Made by a program: the position numbers and the translations under genes. DNA of 64,000 nucleotides from NCBI RefSeq assembly GCF_054482525.1, contig NZ_JBTHVG010000003.1; one strand, given 5' to 3'. Below, piece by piece: positions 13,380 to 37,071 of the stretch. Positions within the stretch are counted from its first letter, which is position 1. Each line of letters starts with the position of its first letter. Origin of the DNA: a plasmid. The notes beneath the pieces are model-generated. The model was given only the letters and a program-made list of their open reading frames with translations. It did not search any database and had not been told where the DNA came from.

Positions 13380-16300
13380 TTATCCAATTTGCTCACCGAA
13401 GACTTTTAACTTATTTAACCCCCTTTATCGCCAATCTGTGATTTTCTAATGTTAGCCTACAGTTCTAGGGCCCTTGCTCCCATGATGCGAATCCTTCCAC
13501 CTAATAAAGATTAACGCCTCATTCCTGTATGCCGGTCTTACGACGCCAGTGCACGGACAATTTTTGGTCATCACAAGGCCAGGCGGGAGATTTAATCAGG
13601 GCGTGGTGTTCCTTAGCAGCAGCTGCGGCACTGTAAGCCGAAGGCGGAATTAACTCCTTTATCGCCATCTGGGGACGTCATTAGGGGTACCCCTTTTAAC
13701 TTGCTCAGGACCATTAAGCTAAAATTCCGGATAGTGATTGACGTAAGATTTAGGCTAAGCAGGTAAAGTGATCCCCGCTCCCGGGGTGACCACTTTATAC
13801 AAAAGGCCGATCGGAAGATTGTCCTTAGGGAAATATTCCTTTAACACAGCACGGGCACTTACTGCCGCTGCCGGATTTAACCCCCTTAATCGCCAAACTG
13901 GGGTACTGTCCTGATGCTGGCCTTCAGTTCTGGGCTGGGTGGCTATCACTTCCTCCCATAATGCGAAATGTAACTGCTGATACAGATTAACGTCATATTC
14001 CTGCGTGCCGGTCTGCCAACACCAGTGCACGGGCTTTTTTCGGTCATCACATTACCGGGCAGGAGATTTTATCAGGGCGTGGTGTGACTGAGCAGAAGCT
14101 GGGGCACTGTCAGCAGCTTGCAGATTTAACCCCCTTAATCGCCAAACTGGGATTCTGGTCTGATATTGACCTTCCGTGCTGGGCGGGGTTCGGTTTGCTA
14201 ACACTTACTCCCATGATACGAAATGTGCCTGCTGATACAGATTAAAATCACATTACTGCATACCGGTCTGCCGACACCGGTGCATGGGCGATTTCCGACG
14301 ATCTCAAGAACATATGGGAGATTATATCAGGGAGAGTAGTATGCCTGAGCAGCATCTGAAGGCACTGTCAGCCGCTGTCAGATTTAACCCCCTTAATCGC
14401 CAAACTGGTGTTCTGTCCTCATGCAGGCCTTCAGTTCTGAGCTGGGTTGCTATCACTTGCTCCCATAATGCGAAATGTACCTGCTGATACAAATTAACGT
14501 CGTATTCCTGTATGCCGGTCTGCCGACACCAGTGCTCGGGCTATTTTCGGTCCTAACAAGACCTGGCGAGAGATTTAATCAGGGCGTGGTGTGACTGAGC
14601 AGCAGCTGGGGCACTGTTATCCGCTTGCAGATTTAACCCCCTTAATCGCCACACTGGGGTTCAGTCCTGATAGTGTCCTTCCGTCCTGGGCTCGGTTGCT
14701 AACACTTGCTCCCATTGCGCCTGCTGATACAGATTAAAGTCACATTACTGCATACCGATCTGCCGACTCCGGTGCATGGCTTTTTCCGATAATCACAAGG
14801 ACGGACGGGTGATTTTATCGTTGCATAGTATGTCTGAGCAGCATCAGAAGGCTCTGTCAGCCACTGGCAGATTTAACCCCCTTAATCTCCAAACTGGGAT
14901 CAGTCCTGATAGTGTCCTTCCGTCCTGGGCAGGGTTGCTAACACTTGCTCCCATGATACGAAATGCGCCAGCTGATACAGATTAACGTCTCATTACTCCA
15001 TGCCGGTCTGCCGAAACTGGTGCATAGCTTTTTTCGATATTCGCATGAACAGACGCTTGATTTTTTCAGGTTGTAATATACCTGAGCAGCATCTGAAGGC
15101 ACTTTCAGTCGCTGTCAGATTTAACCCCCTTAATCGCCAATCTGGGATTTTCTGATGTTAACCTACAGTTCAAGGCCCTTGCTCCCATGATGCGAACCTT
15201 GCAACCTGATAAAGATTTAAGCTTCATTCCTGTATGCCGGTCTTACGACTCTAGTGCACGGGGACTATTTTCGGTCATAATAAGACCTGGCGGGAGATTT
15301 AATCAGGCGTGGTGTGACTGAGCAGAAGCTGGGGCACTGTCAGCCGCTGGCAGATTAAAACCCTTTATTCGCCATCTCAAGACGTCATTATGGGTAGTCC
15401 TTTTAACTTTCTAAGGACCATTAAGCTTAAACTCCGTTTAGAGAATGACGTAAGATTTAGGCTAAGCAGGTTAAGTGATCCCCGCTCCCGGGTTGAACAC
15501 TTTATTCATCGTACGAGCGAAAGATTGTCCTTCGGGAAATATTTCTTATACACCGCTCGGGCACTTACAGCCACTGGCGGATTTAACCCCCTTAATCGCC
15601 AAACTGGGGTACTGTCCTGATGCTGGCCTTCAGTTCTGGGCTGGGTGGCTATCACTTGCTCCCCTAATGCGAAATGTGTCTGTTAATACAGATTAACGTC
15701 ATTTTCCTGCGTGCCGGTCTGCCGACACCAGTGCACGGCCTTTTTTCGGTCATTACATTACCGGGCAGGAGATTTTATCAGGGCGTGGTGTTACTGAGCA
15801 GGAGCTGGGGCACTATCAGCAGCTTGCATATTTAACTCCCTTAATCGCCAAACTGGTGTTCTGTCCTCATGCTGGCCTTCAGTTCTGGGCTGGGTTGCCA
15901 TCTCTTGCTCCCATAATGCGAAATGTATCTGCTGATACAGATTAACGTCATATTCCTGTATGCCGGTCTGCCGACACCAGTGCTTTGGCTATTTTCGGTC
16001 ATAACAAGACCTGGCGAGAGATTTACTCAGGGCGTGGTGTGACTGAGCAGCAGCTGGGGCACTGTCATCCGCTTGCAAATTTAACCCCCTTAATCGCCAA
16101 ACTTGGGTTTTGTCCTGATGCTGGCCTTCCGTTCTGGGCGGGGTTGCTATCACTTGCTCCCATCATGCGAAAAGTGCCTGCTGATACAGATTAACGTCAT
16201 ATTCCTTCATGCCGGTCTGCCGACACCAGTGCTTTGGCTATTTTCGGTCATAACAAGACCTGGCGAGAGATTTACTCAGGGCGTGGTGTGACTGAGCAGC

Positions 16301-16700
16301 AGCTGGGGCACTGTCATCCGCTTGCAAATTTAACCCCCTTAATCGCCAAACTTGGGTTTTGTCCTGATGCTGGCCTTCCGTTCTGGGCGGGGTTGCTATC
16401 ACTTGCTCCCATCATGCGAAAAGTGCCTGCTGATACAGATTAACGTCATATTCCTTCATGCCGGTCTGCCGACACAAATGCACGGGCTTTTTTCGGTCCT
16501 TACAATACCGGGCAGGAGATTTAATCAGGGCGTGGTGTGACTGAGCAGCAGCTAGGACACTGTCAGCCGCTGGCAGATTTAACCCCCTTAATCGCCACAC
16601 TGGGGTTGCCTCCTGAAGTTGGGTTTCAGTTCTGGGCTAGGTTGCTAACTCTGCTCCCATAATTCGTAGTGGGCCTACTCAAGAGATTAACACCTCATAT
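13380..16700. repeat. Tandem direct-repeat array, about 14 units of about 221-259 bp (mostly 249 bp), with higher-order periodicity of about 1.7 kb
   Basis: Recurring block ...CAGATTTAACCCCCTTAATCGCCAAACTGG...GCTCCCATAATGCGAAATG...CTGCTGATACAGATTAACGTCATATTCCTG...GCCGGTCTGCCGACACCAGTGCACGG...GATTTAATCAGGGCGTGGTGTGACTGAGCAGCAGCTGGGGCACTGTCAG. Two adjacent units are identical (identical 69-aa track ORFs at 15985 and 16234, 249 bp apart). Segment 13400-13870 recurs at 15120-15580. Confidence 0.9.
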
Positions 16701-30653: not shown

Positions 30654-31166
30654 ATGAGCGACTACATACCTAAAAAGAGAGGGCTGCTTATACTGGATTG
30701 GTATGTCCCCATTAATATTTTATTGCTGATTCTCGTTATGTGTGTCTTTTTCACCCGTTATACATTTGGATACGGTTTATTGAATGGGTGCCTGCCTGCT
30801 GATTTTTATATGATTGATCATTCGGATAAAACTATTAAAACTGGTGAACTCATAGCTTTCAACATGCCGAAATCGGTTCGTTTTATCCCAGAAAATGAAC
30901 GAGTCATAAAAATTGTTGCCGGTGTGGGCGGTGACAAACTCAAAGTAACAATGGATGGGGTTTATAACGGGGACAAATTTTTTGAAGCTAATGCACGTCG
31001 TATTTCAAAGAAATACAGTATTCCGTCCATTTTGATTGAAAAAGAATTGATAATTCCTGAAGGCGAAGTTTTCCTAATTGGGCAAACCGATCACTCATGG
31101 GATTCCCGTTTTTGGGGAACAGTAAAGCTGAATTCAGTAATTGGGAAAACATATGCGATCTTTTAA
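30654..31166 (+). CDS. Signal peptidase I-like (S26 family) protein, TraF/TrhF-like pilin-maturation peptidase
   Basis: 170 aa, N-terminal transmembrane segment, S26 box-E-like motif (DSRFWG) and a KIVAGVGGD segment. Location in the tra cluster. Confidence 0.55.
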   Translation: MSDYIPKKRGLLILDWYVPINILLLILVMCVFFTRYTFGYGLLNGCLPADFYMIDHSDKTIKTGELIAFNMPKSVRFIPENERVIKIVAGVGGDKLKVTMDGVYNGDKFFEANARRISKKYSIPSILIEKELIIPEGEVFLIGQTDHSWDSRFWGTVKLNSVIGKTYAIF

Positions 31167-32664
31167 TGTAAATAAAAAATATTTACCAATACTTCCTGGA
31201 CTTGCGTTATGTGCAGTTTTAAGTAATACAAATGCAAGCACTGAGTATCAACATGATGCTGACCTAATCGCTCAGCAAGCAAAAGGGCTTGGCGCTCAGG
31301 CTAAAGGTGCACAGCAGCCAGATGGGGCTCTTAGCCTTGATGCTACGCTAAATTCACCAGATGTGCAGAAGTACATTGCGCAAGCTGAAGCACTCAAAAA
31401 AAACCAGGACCTGAGCAGGCAAACAAACCGTGGTTACGTGCCCGGTATGAATGCGGATAGTGTTCAAGCAGTTATAGACCATACCCAGGCTATAAGGGCC
31501 CAAAGTAATAACTCTGATGCTGTCAACGATATAATTAGAAGACGTGATGAAATTCAGGAAAACGCCAGCCTTAATGAAGCGGCTCTGAAAGCTGTGGAAA
31601 ATAAGCCGGAAGTCATGCGAGGACAATCTAAAAATATCGAAAAATTGTTTGGTTCCTCGGGCATCACAGCTGCTGACTTCGAAAGAAAAATGGATAGCAC
31701 ACGTGAAGAAGCACTATCAACTGAAAATGGTATAACGATCTTTGCTTCATTTAGCTTACCGGATTATGTACTGGAAGACCTTTTACGTACGGCCTCAGAG
31801 CATAAAGCTCGTGTAGTTTTCAATGGTCTAAAGAAAGGAACTACTCGGCTACCAGAGACACAGGCAGCAATAAACCAAATGATTGTCAAAGGAAAATTTG
31901 AATCTCCTTTGATTACAATTGATCCTGATAGCTTCAGTCAGTATCAAGTAACTCAAGTACCGACAATTATTTCTCGGGAGCAAGCTCGTTTTGCAAAAAT
32001 GGTAGGGTCCTTCAACGTTGAGTTTTTTCAGCGAGAACTTGCTAAAAAACCCGATCAGGACATTTTTCCTGTTGCTGGTACGATTTATCCCGTTGAAGAA
32101 AAGAGCATCATTAAAGAACTGGAAGAACGCGCACAAAAATATGACTGGGAAGGTGCAAAAAAAAGGGCCGTTGCGGACACCTGGAAAAATCAATGGATGG
32201 TCGATCTCCCTCCTGCCCAGGAACACAAAGAATTTTTAATTGACCCTACAGTGAGGGTCACTCAGGACGTAAAAGATAAGCAGGGCCGTGTAATAGCTTC
32301 CGCCGGTGAGTTGATTAATCCACTTTCGAGATTTCCTCAAAACCTGACGATGATAATTTTCGATCCACTCAATCCGGGCCAGCTGGTATGGGCTGAGCAG
32401 CAGTATCGACAACGTCTGGGTAGTGGAAAAGTAATGCCAATGTTTACCCGTATCCAAAAAGATAATGGATGGGATCACCTAAATGATTTACGTGAAAAAT
32501 TTAACGGTAAGGTGTTTAAAGTAAACGAACAGATTATCTCACGCTTTCAGATTAAAAATACACCTGCGCTTATAACTACTGACCAAGATAAATTCCGGAT
32601 CACCCTGTTTAGCGAGGCAGAAGTCCGTGGAATCGGAGCCCCAAATCTTTCAGAGGAAAAATAA
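31153..32664 (+). CDS. traW: T4SS periplasmic protein TraW/TrbC-like
   Basis: About 500 aa, signal peptide, positioned before traU. Larger than F TraW, consistent with a TraW-TrbC fusion. The track start at 31141 is TTG; the ATG at 31153 is preferred. Confidence 0.45.
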   Translation: MRSFNVNKKYLPILPGLALCAVLSNTNASTEYQHDADLIAQQAKGLGAQAKGAQQPDGALSLDATLNSPDVQKYIAQAEALKKNQDLSRQTNRGYVPGMNADSVQAVIDHTQAIRAQSNNSDAVNDIIRRRDEIQENASLNEAALKAVENKPEVMRGQSKNIEKLFGSSGITAADFERKMDSTREEALSTENGITIFASFSLPDYVLEDLLRTASEHKARVVFNGLKKGTTRLPETQAAINQMIVKGKFESPLITIDPDSFSQYQVTQVPTIISREQARFAKMVGSFNVEFFQRELAKKPDQDIFPVAGTIYPVEEKSIIKELEERAQKYDWEGAKKRAVADTWKNQWMVDLPPAQEHKEFLIDPTVRVTQDVKDKQGRVIASAGELINPLSRFPQNLTMIIFDPLNPGQLVWAEQQYRQRLGSGKVMPMFTRIQKDNGWDHLNDLREKFNGKVFKVNEQIISRFQIKNTPALITTDQDKFRITLFSEAEVRGIGAPNLSEEK

Positions 32665-32665
32665 T

Positions 32666-32800
32666 ATGAAACTCGGATTTATTATAGGCGCTCTCTTTGC
32701 AACATGGCTGACGCTAAATTATCCGGACCAGATGAGAAGTTATTTTACCAAAGCCGTCGACTATATCGAAAGTGTTGCAACATTTATTACATCCAAGTGA
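32666..32800 (+). CDS. Putative 44-aa small membrane protein (not in the supplied ORF track)
   Basis: ATG at 32666 preceded by GAGGA. Encodes MKLGFIIGALFATWLTLNYPDQMRSYFTKAVDYIESVATFITSK. Fills the gap between the traW stop and the traU start. Confidence 0.3.
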   Translation: MKLGFIIGALFATWLTLNYPDQMRSYFTKAVDYIESVATFITSK

Positions 32801-32802
32801 GC

Positions 32803-33864
32803 ATGATGGTGAAAAAATTCAAAAAGTTACTTTTAGAGTTCATTGTAGCAGTTATGCTTTCGCTTTCTATACCTGGTATGGCTATGGCAGCAGATGCTGG
32901 AGTCCCTGGGGCTATGTGTCAGTCAGCTGGAGTGTGGCAGGGCTTGATTAAGAATATCTGTTGGAGCTGCATTTTTCCCATGAGGATAATGGGCATAGGG
33001 GCTGCTCCAGAAGGCGCTGCACCTTCACGTCCGGGTTGCTACTGCACAGATCAGAACGGCGTACCGGAAATAGGTTGGCAATTGAGCTTCTTTCAGCCGG
33101 TGAAGATTGTAGAAGTTGTAAAGAGCCCCTGGTGCAGCCCCTTTCTTGAAGGCACGATGCTTCAAAAATCGCAGTTTGATATTGGTAAAAGCAACACTAA
33201 TCAGCCAATGACAGCAACTGAAGCCGGATTTTACGATGTTCATCTTTGGGAGTTCCCAATCATGACAATGCTCAAATTACTGATTATTGGCGAGTGCACT
33301 GCTGAACCCTATATAGATGCCAGCCTGACCTATATAAGCGAAGTGGACCCTATGTGGGAAAGTGATCTGCTTACACTCGTCCTGAATCCCGAGGCAGTAG
33401 TTTTTGCAAACCCAATTGCCTCAATGGTGTGCGCTGCTGACTGTGTAGCAGTAACAGCAGGAAAGGATAATCTCGCTGCATACTTTTGTGCCGGATGCGA
33501 TGGCAACCTTTACCCATTAACCGGCCACATTTACGCAAATGATGACGCTGTAAGGACGAGTTCACTGATTACCCAGCGTCTTCTGACAAAACTACATCGC
33601 CAAGGCATGCTGATGCGAACGATGGGAGCAGACGCAATGTGTGAGAAAACGTGGGAATACTTTACACCACGTTCCCAGTATCGGCTTTCAATGCTTTTCC
33701 CTACTCCTGAGGCGAAGGGACCGGATTGCTGTCATCGTCTTGGTGATTCGGTACACGACTGGTCAACCCTTAAAGGTGGGCGCAAAAAAATAGGCAACGA
33801 TAATTATGTCTATATGTTGTGGCGTTACAATGACTGTTGTGTTCGCTACGTTCCAGGCGTTTGA
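32803..33864 (+). CDS. traU: T4SS protein TraU-like
   Basis: Signal peptide (MMVKKFKKLLLEFIVAVMLSLSIPGMAMA) and a Cys-rich periplasmic domain. Position between traW and traN. Confidence 0.6.
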   Translation: MMVKKFKKLLLEFIVAVMLSLSIPGMAMAADAGVPGAMCQSAGVWQGLIKNICWSCIFPMRIMGIGAAPEGAAPSRPGCYCTDQNGVPEIGWQLSFFQPVKIVEVVKSPWCSPFLEGTMLQKSQFDIGKSNTNQPMTATEAGFYDVHLWEFPIMTMLKLLIIGECTAEPYIDASLTYISEVDPMWESDLLTLVLNPEAVVFANPIASMVCAADCVAVTAGKDNLAAYFCAGCDGNLYPLTGHIYANDDAVRTSSLITQRLLTKLHRQGMLMRTMGADAMCEKTWEYFTPRSQYRLSMLFPTPEAKGPDCCHRLGDSVHDWSTLKGGRKKIGNDNYVYMLWRYNDCCVRYVPGV

Positions 33865-33882: not shown

Positions 33883-36800
33883 GTGAAACTTAGAAAAACA
33901 ATCACCTCAGCGATTATTGCATCAATGGTTGCCAATACTATGAGTTGGGCTTTTTATGTCACACTCATAAACATGGTAATGACACCACGTGTTTACGCTG
34001 CTGACGCTATATTTGACCAGCTCGAAAATAATTTTAACCTTGCAAATCCTAACGCAAATCGCAATGCAACCACCAGTGCTCAGGACATTGTGGAGAAATA
34101 CAAGAACGCGGATTCAGGCGAGAATGTCAGTGGGAAGATCACCGAGAAATACGTGGGTAAAGCCGAATCCGCTAATCTTAATCTCGGGAAGTATGGGGCA
34201 GGGAACTCTAATGAAAGTGTCATGAAAAATGCCGCATCCGATGGAAAGTCTATTGGTAGCGCCGTACAACTGCCGAGTATGTCTGGAGGGACAATCAATT
34301 CAAACTACACCAAGGAAGGGGCAAAGCTGCTCTCTCGTGATGCTAATGGCAACATTGGTATAAGCAGTAATCCCAATACTACTCCTGGAACCAAAACAAA
34401 TACGGGAGAGATTTTCAGCTCAGAGCAAAAGCACAGCGATATAAAGTTCAACGCCGCAGATCGTTATGGGGATGAGGATGGCTTTGTTAACGATATAAAG
34501 AATCGGAAAAGCCAGTTATTTGATGCTCAAAGTTATGATGGCGTTGCCTACCGCACCCTCGTAAATGCTAACAAGGACAACCCGGCATCGTCTGTAAAGC
34601 CTAACGATCCCATGTTTACTGCGGGGAGAAATGAGATAACCAATGCTGTTGCTGGTACTGGAAACTGGCTTCAGAACTGTAATGTTGAGACCTCCAAAAA
34701 AACAGTAACCACACACTATCCTGATTACAAAGAGTTCTACTGTAACTCGCCTAAGCAAGATAACTTCAGCAGCTGCACGATAACTCGTGACTTCTCTGTT
34801 CCTGTATACATTTCAGGCGGAAACGGAGACATGTCGATGTGCGGCGATAATTGTGTGCGTATATGGTTTGGTCGCCGTGATGACAACTACTGGAGTGACG
34901 GGGTATTTGATAACGAACTGACATTAAAATTCCATCCGGATGCAAAATTGGCCTCAGCAAAGATTGTTAACGCGGAGTGGGATGACCACATGCGGGTAAC
35001 ACTTGATGGCACGCAGATTTTTGCTCACATAGATGGTGCATATCGAGAAAGTGACTATCCGGCTCCAAAGGGATCTTGGGAGTTAAAAAAATCGTGGAAA
35101 CTCGACAAAGTATACGATGTAACTGAAAAGGTCAGAAAATCAGTTTATGAAGAACCTGATCGTGAAGTGACAATGGCATCCAGAGTCTGGGTTGGTGGGG
35201 GAGGTGAAGGGTACTTTGAGGTTGAGCTGACGTTTGAAAATATGAAGCTCGAAGATAAGCACGTCCAGGAACCAGCTGGTTGTTACGATGCTGTACAAAC
35301 ACCAAATACATTCTGCCGTTTCGATCGGTTTAAAGATATGGATGTTGGCACGAAGCGGCTTCCGGAAAGCGTGCTTTCTATGGCAAAGCCGCTGTATGAA
35401 GGCGATAAAGGCTTTCTTACCTGGAAGACTAACCTTGAAGGCTATTTTTGTGATCCATTGGCTAAAGACAAGATTTGCTCTTATGACGCCAGTGGGAAAA
35501 TTATGAAAGACGCTAATGGAAAGGACCTCTGTTACAACTACGAAGAAATTAAGAGTATGCCTGATGCATGTAGTTCTTATAAAAATGATGCAGCATGTGT
35601 ACTCGATAAACAAACATGTGCAGAGGGTTGGTTCGATGAGGGCACTAACAGCTGCTACATGTATGAACAGAAATACACCTGTGACAGAGGTAAGGATGTA
35701 GTTCGTGAGGTTGAATCTTCTACAAATGCCTGTGTTGGCATGATCCCATGTTCTGGAGGAACATGCGAAACTGGGCCAAAGGAAGAGAACAACGATTTTG
35801 GAAAAGTTGCGGCTTATTCAAACATGGTTCAGTACATGCAGGGCGAAGCCAAATGCGAAGACCCTAACGATGCCAATTCCTGTTCTGTCTTTGAAGGAAA
35901 ACCTGAATGGTGTGGTCGTTCAGTAGGCTTTGTAAATGGCCTGGCAAAGACGGACTGCTGCGAAGCACCGCAGGGAACCGCAGGAGCACTTGAAGGTATC
36001 ATGCTTGCCGGATCTATGATCAGAAACACTAACTGGACCAGAGTTAATGCTCAGCTAATAAAATGGACCGGCGGTGATACAGGTACATGGGCTTCTATGT
36101 CCAATGCGGTCGGTGAGTGGACTGCATCAGCTGGTAAAACAGTAGGGCAAATGTGGAACAATGTCACGAGCTCCTTAACGAGCGTATATGAAAACGTCGC
36201 TGGTAATCTAAGCAGGGCAGTTGGGTCTTCCGCAACTTCTGGAGGGGCAGGAGGTGCTGGCCAGTTGGCACAGGAAACAATGTCCAGCTTCGGTATAGGT
36301 CAGCTTAAGCAGATGGCAATGAAGAAAGCCTACGAATTGCTACCAGATACAGTTCGAGACTTTGTCTTTAAGAACGTTGCTACTACCGGAGGAGAGGTTG
36401 TCTTCTCGGCTGCGGTTCAAAACTTTATGCTTGCATTAAACGTGATCGGTTGGATTTATACAGCCTATCAGGTCACTAAAATGCTTTTAGAAATGTTGGT
36501 AGCATGCGACCAGAAAGAGATGGAAGCTTCTATTCATAAGAATCAAAAATCCTGTTTTACATTAGATACGGAACGATGCGTCAAATATCTGAATGTTGGT
36601 TTCACAAAGAAATGCGTTAAAAAAGCAACAGACATGTGCTGTTATAATTCCATGTTGTCACGCGTTATTATGCAACAAGCTTATCCGCAATTAGGAATAG
36701 ACCCTGTCGCCTCTAATTGCGTGGGGCTATCAATAAAGCAAATACAGCAACTGGATTTCGATAAAATTGATCTGACGGAGTGGATTAATGATGCAGTTCA

Positions 36801-37071
36801 GGTAGGAGAAGTTCCTGATCAATATTCAAAATTCTCCGAAGAATCAATTGTGGAAAACTTACCATTCCAGAATGAGAACTATCAACTTCCATCAGAACGT
36901 ACCAAGGAAGCAATGGGCGGTGAAGAAAATATGATAAAGGCCAGACAAGAAAATGCTCAGGCTATAAAAGAGGAAAATGTAGATTGTAGCTATTTACCTC
37001 GACCGGCCATATGTGAGGTAGGTTCAACTACGCTGGATCCGGTTACGGGCAAGCAGTTGCCGAAATATTGA
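33883..37071 (+). CDS. traN: Mating-pair stabilisation outer-membrane protein TraN-like
   Basis: 1062 aa with a Cys-rich central/C-terminal region. GTG start with an AAGGAG ribosome-binding site. Follows traU. Confidence 0.6.
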   Translation: MKLRKTITSAIIASMVANTMSWAFYVTLINMVMTPRVYAADAIFDQLENNFNLANPNANRNATTSAQDIVEKYKNADSGENVSGKITEKYVGKAESANLNLGKYGAGNSNESVMKNAASDGKSIGSAVQLPSMSGGTINSNYTKEGAKLLSRDANGNIGISSNPNTTPGTKTNTGEIFSSEQKHSDIKFNAADRYGDEDGFVNDIKNRKSQLFDAQSYDGVAYRTLVNANKDNPASSVKPNDPMFTAGRNEITNAVAGTGNWLQNCNVETSKKTVTTHYPDYKEFYCNSPKQDNFSSCTITRDFSVPVYISGGNGDMSMCGDNCVRIWFGRRDDNYWSDGVFDNELTLKFHPDAKLASAKIVNAEWDDHMRVTLDGTQIFAHIDGAYRESDYPAPKGSWELKKSWKLDKVYDVTEKVRKSVYEEPDREVTMASRVWVGGGGEGYFEVELTFENMKLEDKHVQEPAGCYDAVQTPNTFCRFDRFKDMDVGTKRLPESVLSMAKPLYEGDKGFLTWKTNLEGYFCDPLAKDKICSYDASGKIMKDANGKDLCYNYEEIKSMPDACSSYKNDAACVLDKQTCAEGWFDEGTNSCYMYEQKYTCDRGKDVVREVESSTNACVGMIPCSGGTCETGPKEENNDFGKVAAYSNMVQYMQGEAKCEDPNDANSCSVFEGKPEWCGRSVGFVNGLAKTDCCEAPQGTAGALEGIMLAGSMIRNTNWTRVNAQLIKWTGGDTGTWASMSNAVGEWTASAGKTVGQMWNNVTSSLTSVYENVAGNLSRAVGSSATSGGAGGAGQLAQETMSSFGIGQLKQMAMKKAYELLPDTVRDFVFKNVATTGGEVVFSAAVQNFMLALNVIGWIYTAYQVTKMLLEMLVACDQKEMEASIHKNQKSCFTLDTERCVKYLNVGFTKKCVKKATDMCCYNSMLSRVIMQQAYPQLGIDPVASNCVGLSIKQIQQLDFDKIDLTEWINDAVQVGEVPDQYSKFSEESIVENLPFQNENYQLPSERTKEAMGGEENMIKARQENAQAIKEENVDCSYLPRPAICEVGSTTLDPVTGKQLPKY

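Follow-up and report, generated by a model that had tools for sequence, protein, structure and literature searches.

The window analysed here, a 64,000-nucleotide stretch, is part of an IncHI2 (R478-type) resistance plasmid, and the region under study is 100% identical to that of many plasmids in Salmonella, E. coli and Enterobacter. Pfam matches, PGAP coordinates and the ORF list together give the local gene order rsp, trhF, trhW, small ORF, trhU, trhN, set in a transfer operon with the wider order htdA...trhF(trhP)-trhW-[sORF]-trhU-trhN; trhW and trhU are the IncHI names of the two genes called traW and traU in the initial annotation. The S26 peptidase gene trhF (30654-31166) is followed by trhW (31153..32664, plus strand), a TrbC/TraW-type pilus-assembly gene recognised by Pfam TrbC_Ftype (E 2.1e-17) and delimited by PGAP coordinates carried over from an identical plasmid, with its TAA stop at 32662-32664. 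Downstream lie trhU (32809..33864, plus strand; Pfam TraU, E 3.6e-82), given here with PGAP's GTG start, and trhN (TraN; 33883-37071).

The 138-nt gap between trhW and trhU is filled by a small ORF on the plus strand (32666..32800; ATG 32666-32668, TGA 32798-32800), whose 44 codons plus TGA, read from the sequence and the ORF list, encode MKLGFIIGALFATWLTLNYPDQMRSYFTKAVDYIESVATFITSK, the same protein as WP_000765857.1. A single nucleotide separates its ATG from the trhW stop and 2-8 nt are left after it, the conserved trhU GTG lying 8 nt away, and the earlier description of an ORF filling the gap is thus borne out. The strong ribosome-binding site ascribed to it is likewise present: its Shine-Dalgarno (SD) element GAGGA (32653..32657, plus strand) is positioned 8 nt upstream of the ATG, contained in the last codons at the trhW 3' end, and has an AGG core that is invariant in a seven-lineage alignment. 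The SD:anti-SD duplex amounts to -6.0 kcal/mol for the window small ORF and to -7.4 to -11.7 kcal/mol in the other six lineages. It is stronger than those of the immediate neighbours trhF (-3.5 kcal/mol), trhW (-4.2 kcal/mol) and trhU, while that of trhN (-9.1 kcal/mol) is stronger still. A start-to-end ORF filling the gap arose in 0.56% of 100,000 first-order Markov randomisations, and the frame was open in 6.3% of them; its occurrence by chance is therefore unlikely, though the randomisation alone leaves chance possible.

The description of the ORF as unannotated is for the most part right. It is missing from the RefSeq records of R27, R478 and pSTM6-275, and from 60/60 E. coli RefSeq records sampled from 274 that carry it, whereas a minority of records (WP_000765857.1, WP_022652169.1, CAH3947914.1), along with many GenBank submissions, do contain it as a 'hypothetical protein'. 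WP_000765857.1 is the identical 44-aa IncHI2 sequence, annotated at the same position in, for example, pECJS-B60-267, and WP_022652169.1 is the 43-aa IncHI1 orthologue; neither entry has a name, family or function attached. At least 1,000 contigs from public collections carry the exact 44-aa sequence, and a word-indexed protein search with the single peptide returned three near-identical, mis-started calls only, which indicates that gene callers under-call the small ORF. UniRef labels the 43-44 aa protein 'TrhU' (A0A142CQ64_ECOLX, A0A2L0W1R2_CITFR, A0A379Y251_SALET), and this looks like a mislabel propagated from the annotation of the neighbouring gene. Our literature search found no paper that mentions the small ORF or its protein accessions. 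Small membrane proteins that escape annotation form a class already well known. In R27, trhW and trhU are co-transcribed, and the interval between them, called a 249-bp intergenic region, is without promoter activity; trhP/trhW are temperature-responsive and trhU/trhN are not, a number of 5' ends were mapped upstream of trhU, and a coding sequence in the interval was not considered (PMC7366339).

Conservation of the ORF and its frame was assessed by tblastn over 72,556 plasmids, in which the small ORF is intact in about 1,400 IncHI1/IncHI2 plasmid records, every one of the 1,401 records with the region covering at least 80% of the query. By identity, 1,116 records are at least 99% identical (IncHI2), 283 lie at 60-80% (IncHI1) and one falls below 60%. 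A supposed third, 57%-identical variant in pYSP8-1 (NZ_CP037911.1) was rejected as R27-type sequence full of single-base indels, that is, an assembly error; its RefSeq record, in which trhW-trhU carries indels relative to the R27 type and almost no CDS is annotated, looks like an uncorrected long-read assembly error. Save in this indel-ridden assembly, the frame-shifts or stops that would speak against the ORF were not encountered in close relatives, and with more diverged relatives included the ORF stays in frame in seven lineages with saturated synonymous sites in the flanking genes, conservation of the frame being the check that the initial annotation had proposed.

Two variants of the small protein, MKIGFILGALLATWLTLNYPDLMREYFNKVVTYMESVTTFITK and MKIGFIFGALLATWLTLTYPDQMRECFNKVVAYMESVTTFITK, occur in IncHI1. 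Compared with these, the IncHI2 sequence differs at 32-33 of 129 nt, with the differences distributed over the codon positions as 7:6:20 and 6:7:19. Only 11-12 amino-acid changes are observed where about 20.9 are expected, and a number as low as that observed was reached by 0/20,000 neutral simulations in which an equal number of substitutions was placed randomly; the frame remained open in just 35-37% of such simulations. Omega for the small ORF is 0.15-0.18 between IncHI2 and the IncHI1 variants, and its frame is the sole one open in all three sequences, the other five each being stopped in at least one plasmid. Between IncHI2 and IncHI1 the small ORF has a pN of 0.16, compared to 0.12 for trhW and 0.03 for trhU, implying a constraint about equal to that on TrhW. 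Synonymous sites of the flanking genes are saturated in this comparison (pS 0.80-0.87). The pS of the small ORF (32666-32797) lies below that range, at 0.55-0.60 on about 29 sites, which may be noise from the small sample or a sign of additional constraint at the nucleotide level. Across the seven T4SS-linked lineages, pN/pS is 0.20-0.61 in 21/21 pairs and the differences summed by codon position are 258:215:505, a third-position excess. The small ORF therefore displays what is expected of protein-coding sequence, namely an excess of third-position and synonymous differences and a frame that stays open in diverged relatives. On this comparative evidence it is a real, conserved, uncharacterised protein-coding gene, and the proposal that annotation had overlooked a genuine small-protein gene is upheld by the frame kept over seven lineages together with the signature of purifying selection.

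Relatives of the protein were gathered by an exhaustive profile search and a second profile search, which yielded 36 clusters, all from Enterobacterales and all 'hypothetical'. The family has the motif M[KR]LGF..G...ATWL[TS]L.YP, and the window protein belongs to it, with relatives at E 1e-10 to 1e-27. No Pfam model matched the family members and no NCBIfam match rose above noise; for the window protein there was no Pfam/NCBIfam match to known F-type/IncHI T4SS families (TraQ, TrbI_Ftype, TraL, TraE and others), and a PDB search gave no chain at E<=1. We conclude that this is an Enterobacterales small-protein family not previously described. A match to PHROGs phrog_36682, a group catalogued as of unknown function, over the hydrophobic segment (best E 3e-4, 17/33 members) was weak and was taken as compositional similarity, and a scan of genome contigs with peptide patterns produced 44 pattern matches, none of them confirmed.

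Members of the family differ in length, tail and genomic setting. The T4SS-linked members (group A) are 43-44 aa long, have no acidic tail, and always stand in the order S26 peptidase, TrhW, sORF, TraU, TraN; they are also found in plasmids or contigs of Photorhabdus heterorhabditis and P. tasmaniensis and in metagenomic lineages. This synteny is fixed in IncHI2, IncHI1, two Photorhabdus plasmid types and two metagenomic lineages, with the small-ORF ATG always 1-2 nt past the trhW stop, and the window small ORF belongs with the T4SS-linked subgroup by its length (43-44 codons in the subgroup), its placement between trhW and trhU, the spacing of its start and its want of an acidic tail. The chromosomal, stand-alone members (group B) are 47-80 aa long, with the first ~38 residues common to the family and then an acidic tail; their genes have their own SD, and pN/pS between closer pairs is about 0.2. 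Their contexts vary: some lie beside or after fimbrial operons and some upstream of feoABC, while others are placed among invasin genes and IS elements or in the gstB-dacC interval, adjoining an MliC gene. Since the chromosomal members occupy such unrelated and variable contexts, the basic activity of the family need not be T4SS-specific. Two chromosomal homologues adjoin operons of the chaperone-usher fimbrial type. On one Klebsiella-like contig (L032, 5001-5546) the small gene is followed after 4 nt by a gene of the MliC family (lysozyme-inhibitor lipoprotein), and at a near-identical locus (L031) the MliC-family gene is not called.

The clusters that bear the small ORF form a clade, within which TrhW identity is 59-91%, compared with 47-50% to an IncHI-like plasmid of Klebsiella that has no small ORF (L006); for TrhU the corresponding values are 88-97% and 78-82%. 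In Klebsiella plasmids of the IncHI1B/pNDM-MAR type and the pKO-16-21 type, no homologue was detected anywhere on the plasmid, and none was detected elsewhere on L006 or F either. Because IncHI-like T4SSs without the small ORF exist, the small protein cannot be a universal core component. These relationships leave two histories: the small ORF was acquired by the ancestor of the IncHI1/IncHI2/Photorhabdus clade, or the sister clade lost it. Gain from the chromosomal family is plausible. An origin by duplication of the TrhU signal peptide, suggested by a resemblance seen by eye, was set aside, the stand-alone chromosomal homologues being a simpler source.

In an alignment of 33 sequences, M1, F5, G8, L15, Y19 and P20 are invariant and G4, W14, L17 and F27 nearly so. 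AlphaFold2, run on this alignment, predicts a helix at residues 3-18, a break at Tyr19-Pro20 and a helix at residues 20-43, with a mean pLDDT of 86.9. Codons 3-18 (32672..32719, plus strand) correspond to a predicted hydrophobic, membrane helix with a conserved small-residue face, G4xxxG8xxxA12, and W14, supported by hydropathy as well as by the model; the best 17-residue Kyte-Doolittle mean of this first helix is 1.4-1.9 across lineages. The Tyr-Pro helix break, invariant family-wide in alignment and present in the model, is encoded by codons 19-20 (32720..32725, plus strand), and codons 21-44 (32726..32797, plus strand) encode a predicted amphipathic helix, the modelled helix 20-43 overlapping Pro20. 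The second helix has a hydrophobic moment of 0.24-0.47 and is net neutral in T4SS-linked members, while chromosomal relatives add an acidic tail (e.g. +2/-7). The 'hydrophobic peptide' of the initial annotation is thus an apt description of the N-terminal half (residues 3-17) but not of the C-terminal half, which is amphipathic. The hydrophobic core spans about 15-17 residues and is moderately hydrophobic (unweighted Hessa-scale sum for K2-Y19 of +2.9 to +5.6 kcal/mol); for a segment this short and moderately hydrophobic, a true transmembrane, bilayer-spanning topology is likely but not assured. By the positive-inside rule, an N-in/C-out orientation is suggested by the lone Lys/Arg at the N-terminus together with the acidic tails seen in chromosomal relatives. 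From these predictions the product is probably a membrane-anchored small protein.

The window offers three candidate starts for trhU, ATG 32803, ATG 32806 and GTG 32809, of which the GTG is PGAP's choice and the sole one conserved across lineages. The two in-frame ATGs upstream of it are present in IncHI2, and start calls for trhU disagree, PGAP taking the GTG and other callers a position 45-105 nt downstream in two lineages (L016 and L025). The small-ORF TGA is held within AAGTGAG (32795..32801, plus strand), a weak SD-like element for trhU that is conserved in the seven lineages as (A)AGTGAG or AGAGAG. In all lineages the trhU SD (-2.9 to -5.3 kcal/mol) is weaker than that of the small ORF (-6.0 to -11.7 kcal/mol), and in every lineage the trhU GTG stands 8-11 nt past the small-ORF stop. 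Relatives without the small ORF are arranged differently: trhW/traW and trhU/traU overlap (ATGA), the start is an ATG, and the SD is strong (-7.6 kcal/mol in L006 and -12.5 kcal/mol for F traU). This association of a weak SD and a GTG with the small ORF, and of an ATG and a strong SD with its absence, makes translational coupling likely, and the geometry for it is found in all lineages; translation of the small ORF is thus likely, from the sequence arrangement, to be coupled to trhU. As trhU has its own weak SD and, in IncHI2, two extra ATGs, the coupling may be partial. Fusion to trhW or trhU, whether by read-through or by frameshifting, was rejected, given that the three genes lie in three frames and that the spacings vary (1 or 2 nt; 8 or 11 nt).

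Within trhU, codons 5-9 coincide with a copy (32822-32834) of the 13-bp palindrome AAAAGTNACTTTT, which is scattered over the plasmid backbone at 8 perfect sites, the others at 986, 1771, 8482, 25188, 25382, 39345 and 57979, and at 10 sites with one mismatch (6173, 6423, 20148, 29275, 39027, 39821, 46470, 50215, 53786 and 61424). Allowing up to 2 mismatches on both strands, 29 matches were counted against 1.9 expected (maximum 6 in shuffles). The trhU copy is nucleotide-invariant, synonymous positions included, in the seven lineages bearing the small ORF and in L006, which is without it. The palindrome shows enrichment in R27 as well, with 6 perfect copies over 40 kb, and does not occur in the loci examined from Rts1, F and chromosomes. 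Its copies are found at gene 5' ends in some cases (htdO, trhU, htdK, upstream of htdT) and inside genes in others. By analogy, it could be a putative operator of a plasmid-wide regulator or of a ParB/KorB-like protein; our literature search found no paper on this palindrome. Elsewhere in the window, a tandem array (13853-16691; 11.6 copies of a 249-bp unit, 73% matches) fills a 3.8-kb stretch between trhC and parA in which PGAP annotates no CDS, and R27 shows a comparable region free of CDS (25.3-28.5 kb).

In our view the small ORF is probably translated as an authentic cistron of the IncHI transfer operon, specifies a membrane-anchored T4SS accessory protein and, through its translation, feeds trhU. 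The product would be a protein of 43-44 residues anchored in the membrane by a short hydrophobic N-terminal helix that presents the G4xxxG8xxxA12 packing face, followed by the Tyr-Pro kink and the amphipathic helix. In the N-in/C-out orientation, the amphipathic helix would reside in the periplasm, where TrhW, TrhU and TrhN act, and the small protein would assist the H-pilus/T4SS machinery, either as an accessory subunit or as an assembly factor, through helix-helix contact with a larger membrane or periplasmic Trh component. Ribosomes would end at the TGA inside the weak AAGUGAG SD and re-initiate 8 nt downstream at the trhU GTG, so that TrhU output would be coupled, at least partly, to translation of the small ORF. 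It is from the conserved position only that we infer a role in the T4SS.

Two other readings would deny the peptide itself a function. One takes the interval for non-coding, a spacer or an RNA element (a processing site, an attenuator or an sRNA) whose frame is open by accident, and is scarcely credible. Such a reading would accord with the treatment of the R27 interval as a 249-bp intergenic region containing several 5' ends of trhU-trhN transcripts (PMC7366339) and with the small ORF being left uncalled by PGAP in most records, but the codon-position bias and the deficit of replacements are incompatible with non-coding evolution, the other five frames all carry stops, and the profile of the translated ORF reaches more distant relatives in protein databases. 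At the RNA level, there was no Rfam match at E<=1, the fold was no better than that of shuffles (z = +1.47; 185/200 shuffles at least as stable), the consensus fold of the seven lineages came to -3.6 kcal/mol with 0 compensatory pairs, and neither a terminator nor a plus-strand promoter was found. The pattern of conservation effectively refutes a non-coding element. A pure translational coupler or leader, in which the passage of ribosomes to the weak trhU start matters and the peptide is functionless, is in our estimate improbable, even though several features would suit it: the small-ORF stop is embedded in the weak trhU SD with a conserved GTG 8-11 nt downstream, the strong SD is placed on the small ORF and not on trhU, relatives lacking the small ORF give trhU an ATG and a strong SD, and the low small-ORF pS (0.55-0.60 vs 0.80-0.87 in the flanks) hints at constraint at the nucleotide level. 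Yet the amino-acid sequence is conserved beyond what a coupler needs (pN/pS 0.2-0.6, 11 vs 21 replacements, F5/G8/L15/Y19/P20 invariant), the length is fixed at 43-44 codons, and stand-alone homologues exist on chromosomes without a coupled downstream gene.

The main uncertainty is whether the gene encodes a membrane peptide with a job other than T4SS assembly, an alternative to which we allow a small though appreciable chance. The product might be a membrane-active peptide of the toxin-like or stress type, might confer exclusion or immunity, or might be a small chromosomal protein that was captured and is carried along in the operon. Type I toxins and membrane modulators are typically small single-helix peptides, the chromosomal members of the family sit in variable islands unrelated to conjugation, and some IncHI-like T4SSs manage without the small protein; on the other hand, its position between trhW and trhU is strictly kept though TrhW has diverged to 59% identity. 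With regard to type I toxin features, the locus has an exposed strong SD, no RNA structure signal, no Rfam match and 2 minus-strand promoter-like sites vs 1.4 expected. Against this alternative stand the strength and accessibility of the SD in an operon that is constitutively co-translated, the lack of antisense promoters beyond chance expectation and the want of significant RNA structure (z = +1.47), and entry exclusion in R27 has been attributed to other genes. We favour the accessory protein of the transfer machinery. A bolder form of this proposal, that the 44-residue protein is an important subunit or assembly factor of IncHI1/IncHI2 conjugation, recruited from the chromosomal family and also gating TrhU synthesis, is one we advance tentatively and regard as possible rather than expected; in it, the protein might for example anchor or stabilise periplasmic TrhW/TrhU at the inner membrane.

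IncHI1/IncHI2 plasmids rank among the main vehicles of multidrug, mcr-1 and typhoid resistance, and about 1,400 sequenced ones carry the small ORF. The inventory of IncHI transfer genes derives from studies of R27, where trhW and trhU were taken as adjacent with a spacer between them. The R27 interval that served as an intergenic promoter probe, and in which 5' ends were located, is coding (PMC7366339). Mutations in trhW or trhU may, through polar or scar effects, have touched a third gene, and TrhU expression may depend on the small ORF. Were the protein indeed a conjugation subunit, the accepted list of IncHI transfer genes would be incomplete, and earlier experiments with trhW/trhU mutants or with the 'intergenic region' would need re-reading. 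The finding also opens to study an unnamed family with plasmid and chromosomal members. In scale, it is a modest, concrete correction rather than a new principle.

Among conjugative systems, a resemblance in kind is offered by Orf180 of Rts1 (IncT), which is essential for mating-pair formation, as shown by deletion and complementation, and for which the paper states 58 aa in its Table 1 but 45 aa in its text (PMC10838148). Like the small protein described here, Orf180 is very small, has a single hydrophobic helix, and belongs to an MOBH/MPF_F transfer system in a narrow plasmid clade; it is a precedent for proteins of this size being indispensable to conjugation. Orf180 is encoded elsewhere in Rts1, however, and not between traW and traU, which are adjacent there, and homology between the two proteins was rejected (hhalign probability 0.2%). 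The F plasmid has no ORF between traW and traU, which overlap, but has TrbE, an 85-aa inner-membrane protein encoded between traN and traF that is, like the small protein, hydrophobic and situated among F-type pilus-assembly genes. TrbE is longer and has two hydrophobic stretches, and homology to it was likewise rejected (hhalign probability 0.2%); a passage of PMC10838148 cites it as dispensable for F transfer. A broader parallel lies outside conjugation, and here the likeness is of size (30-50 aa), of a single hydrophobic helix, of a location in or beside the operon of the partner, and of frequent omission from annotation. This parallel is with AcrZ-AcrB, KdpF-KdpABC, CydX-CydAB and MgtS-MgtA, in which single-helix small proteins bind and modulate larger membrane complexes; it is an analogy of kind only, with no sequence relationship to the small protein.
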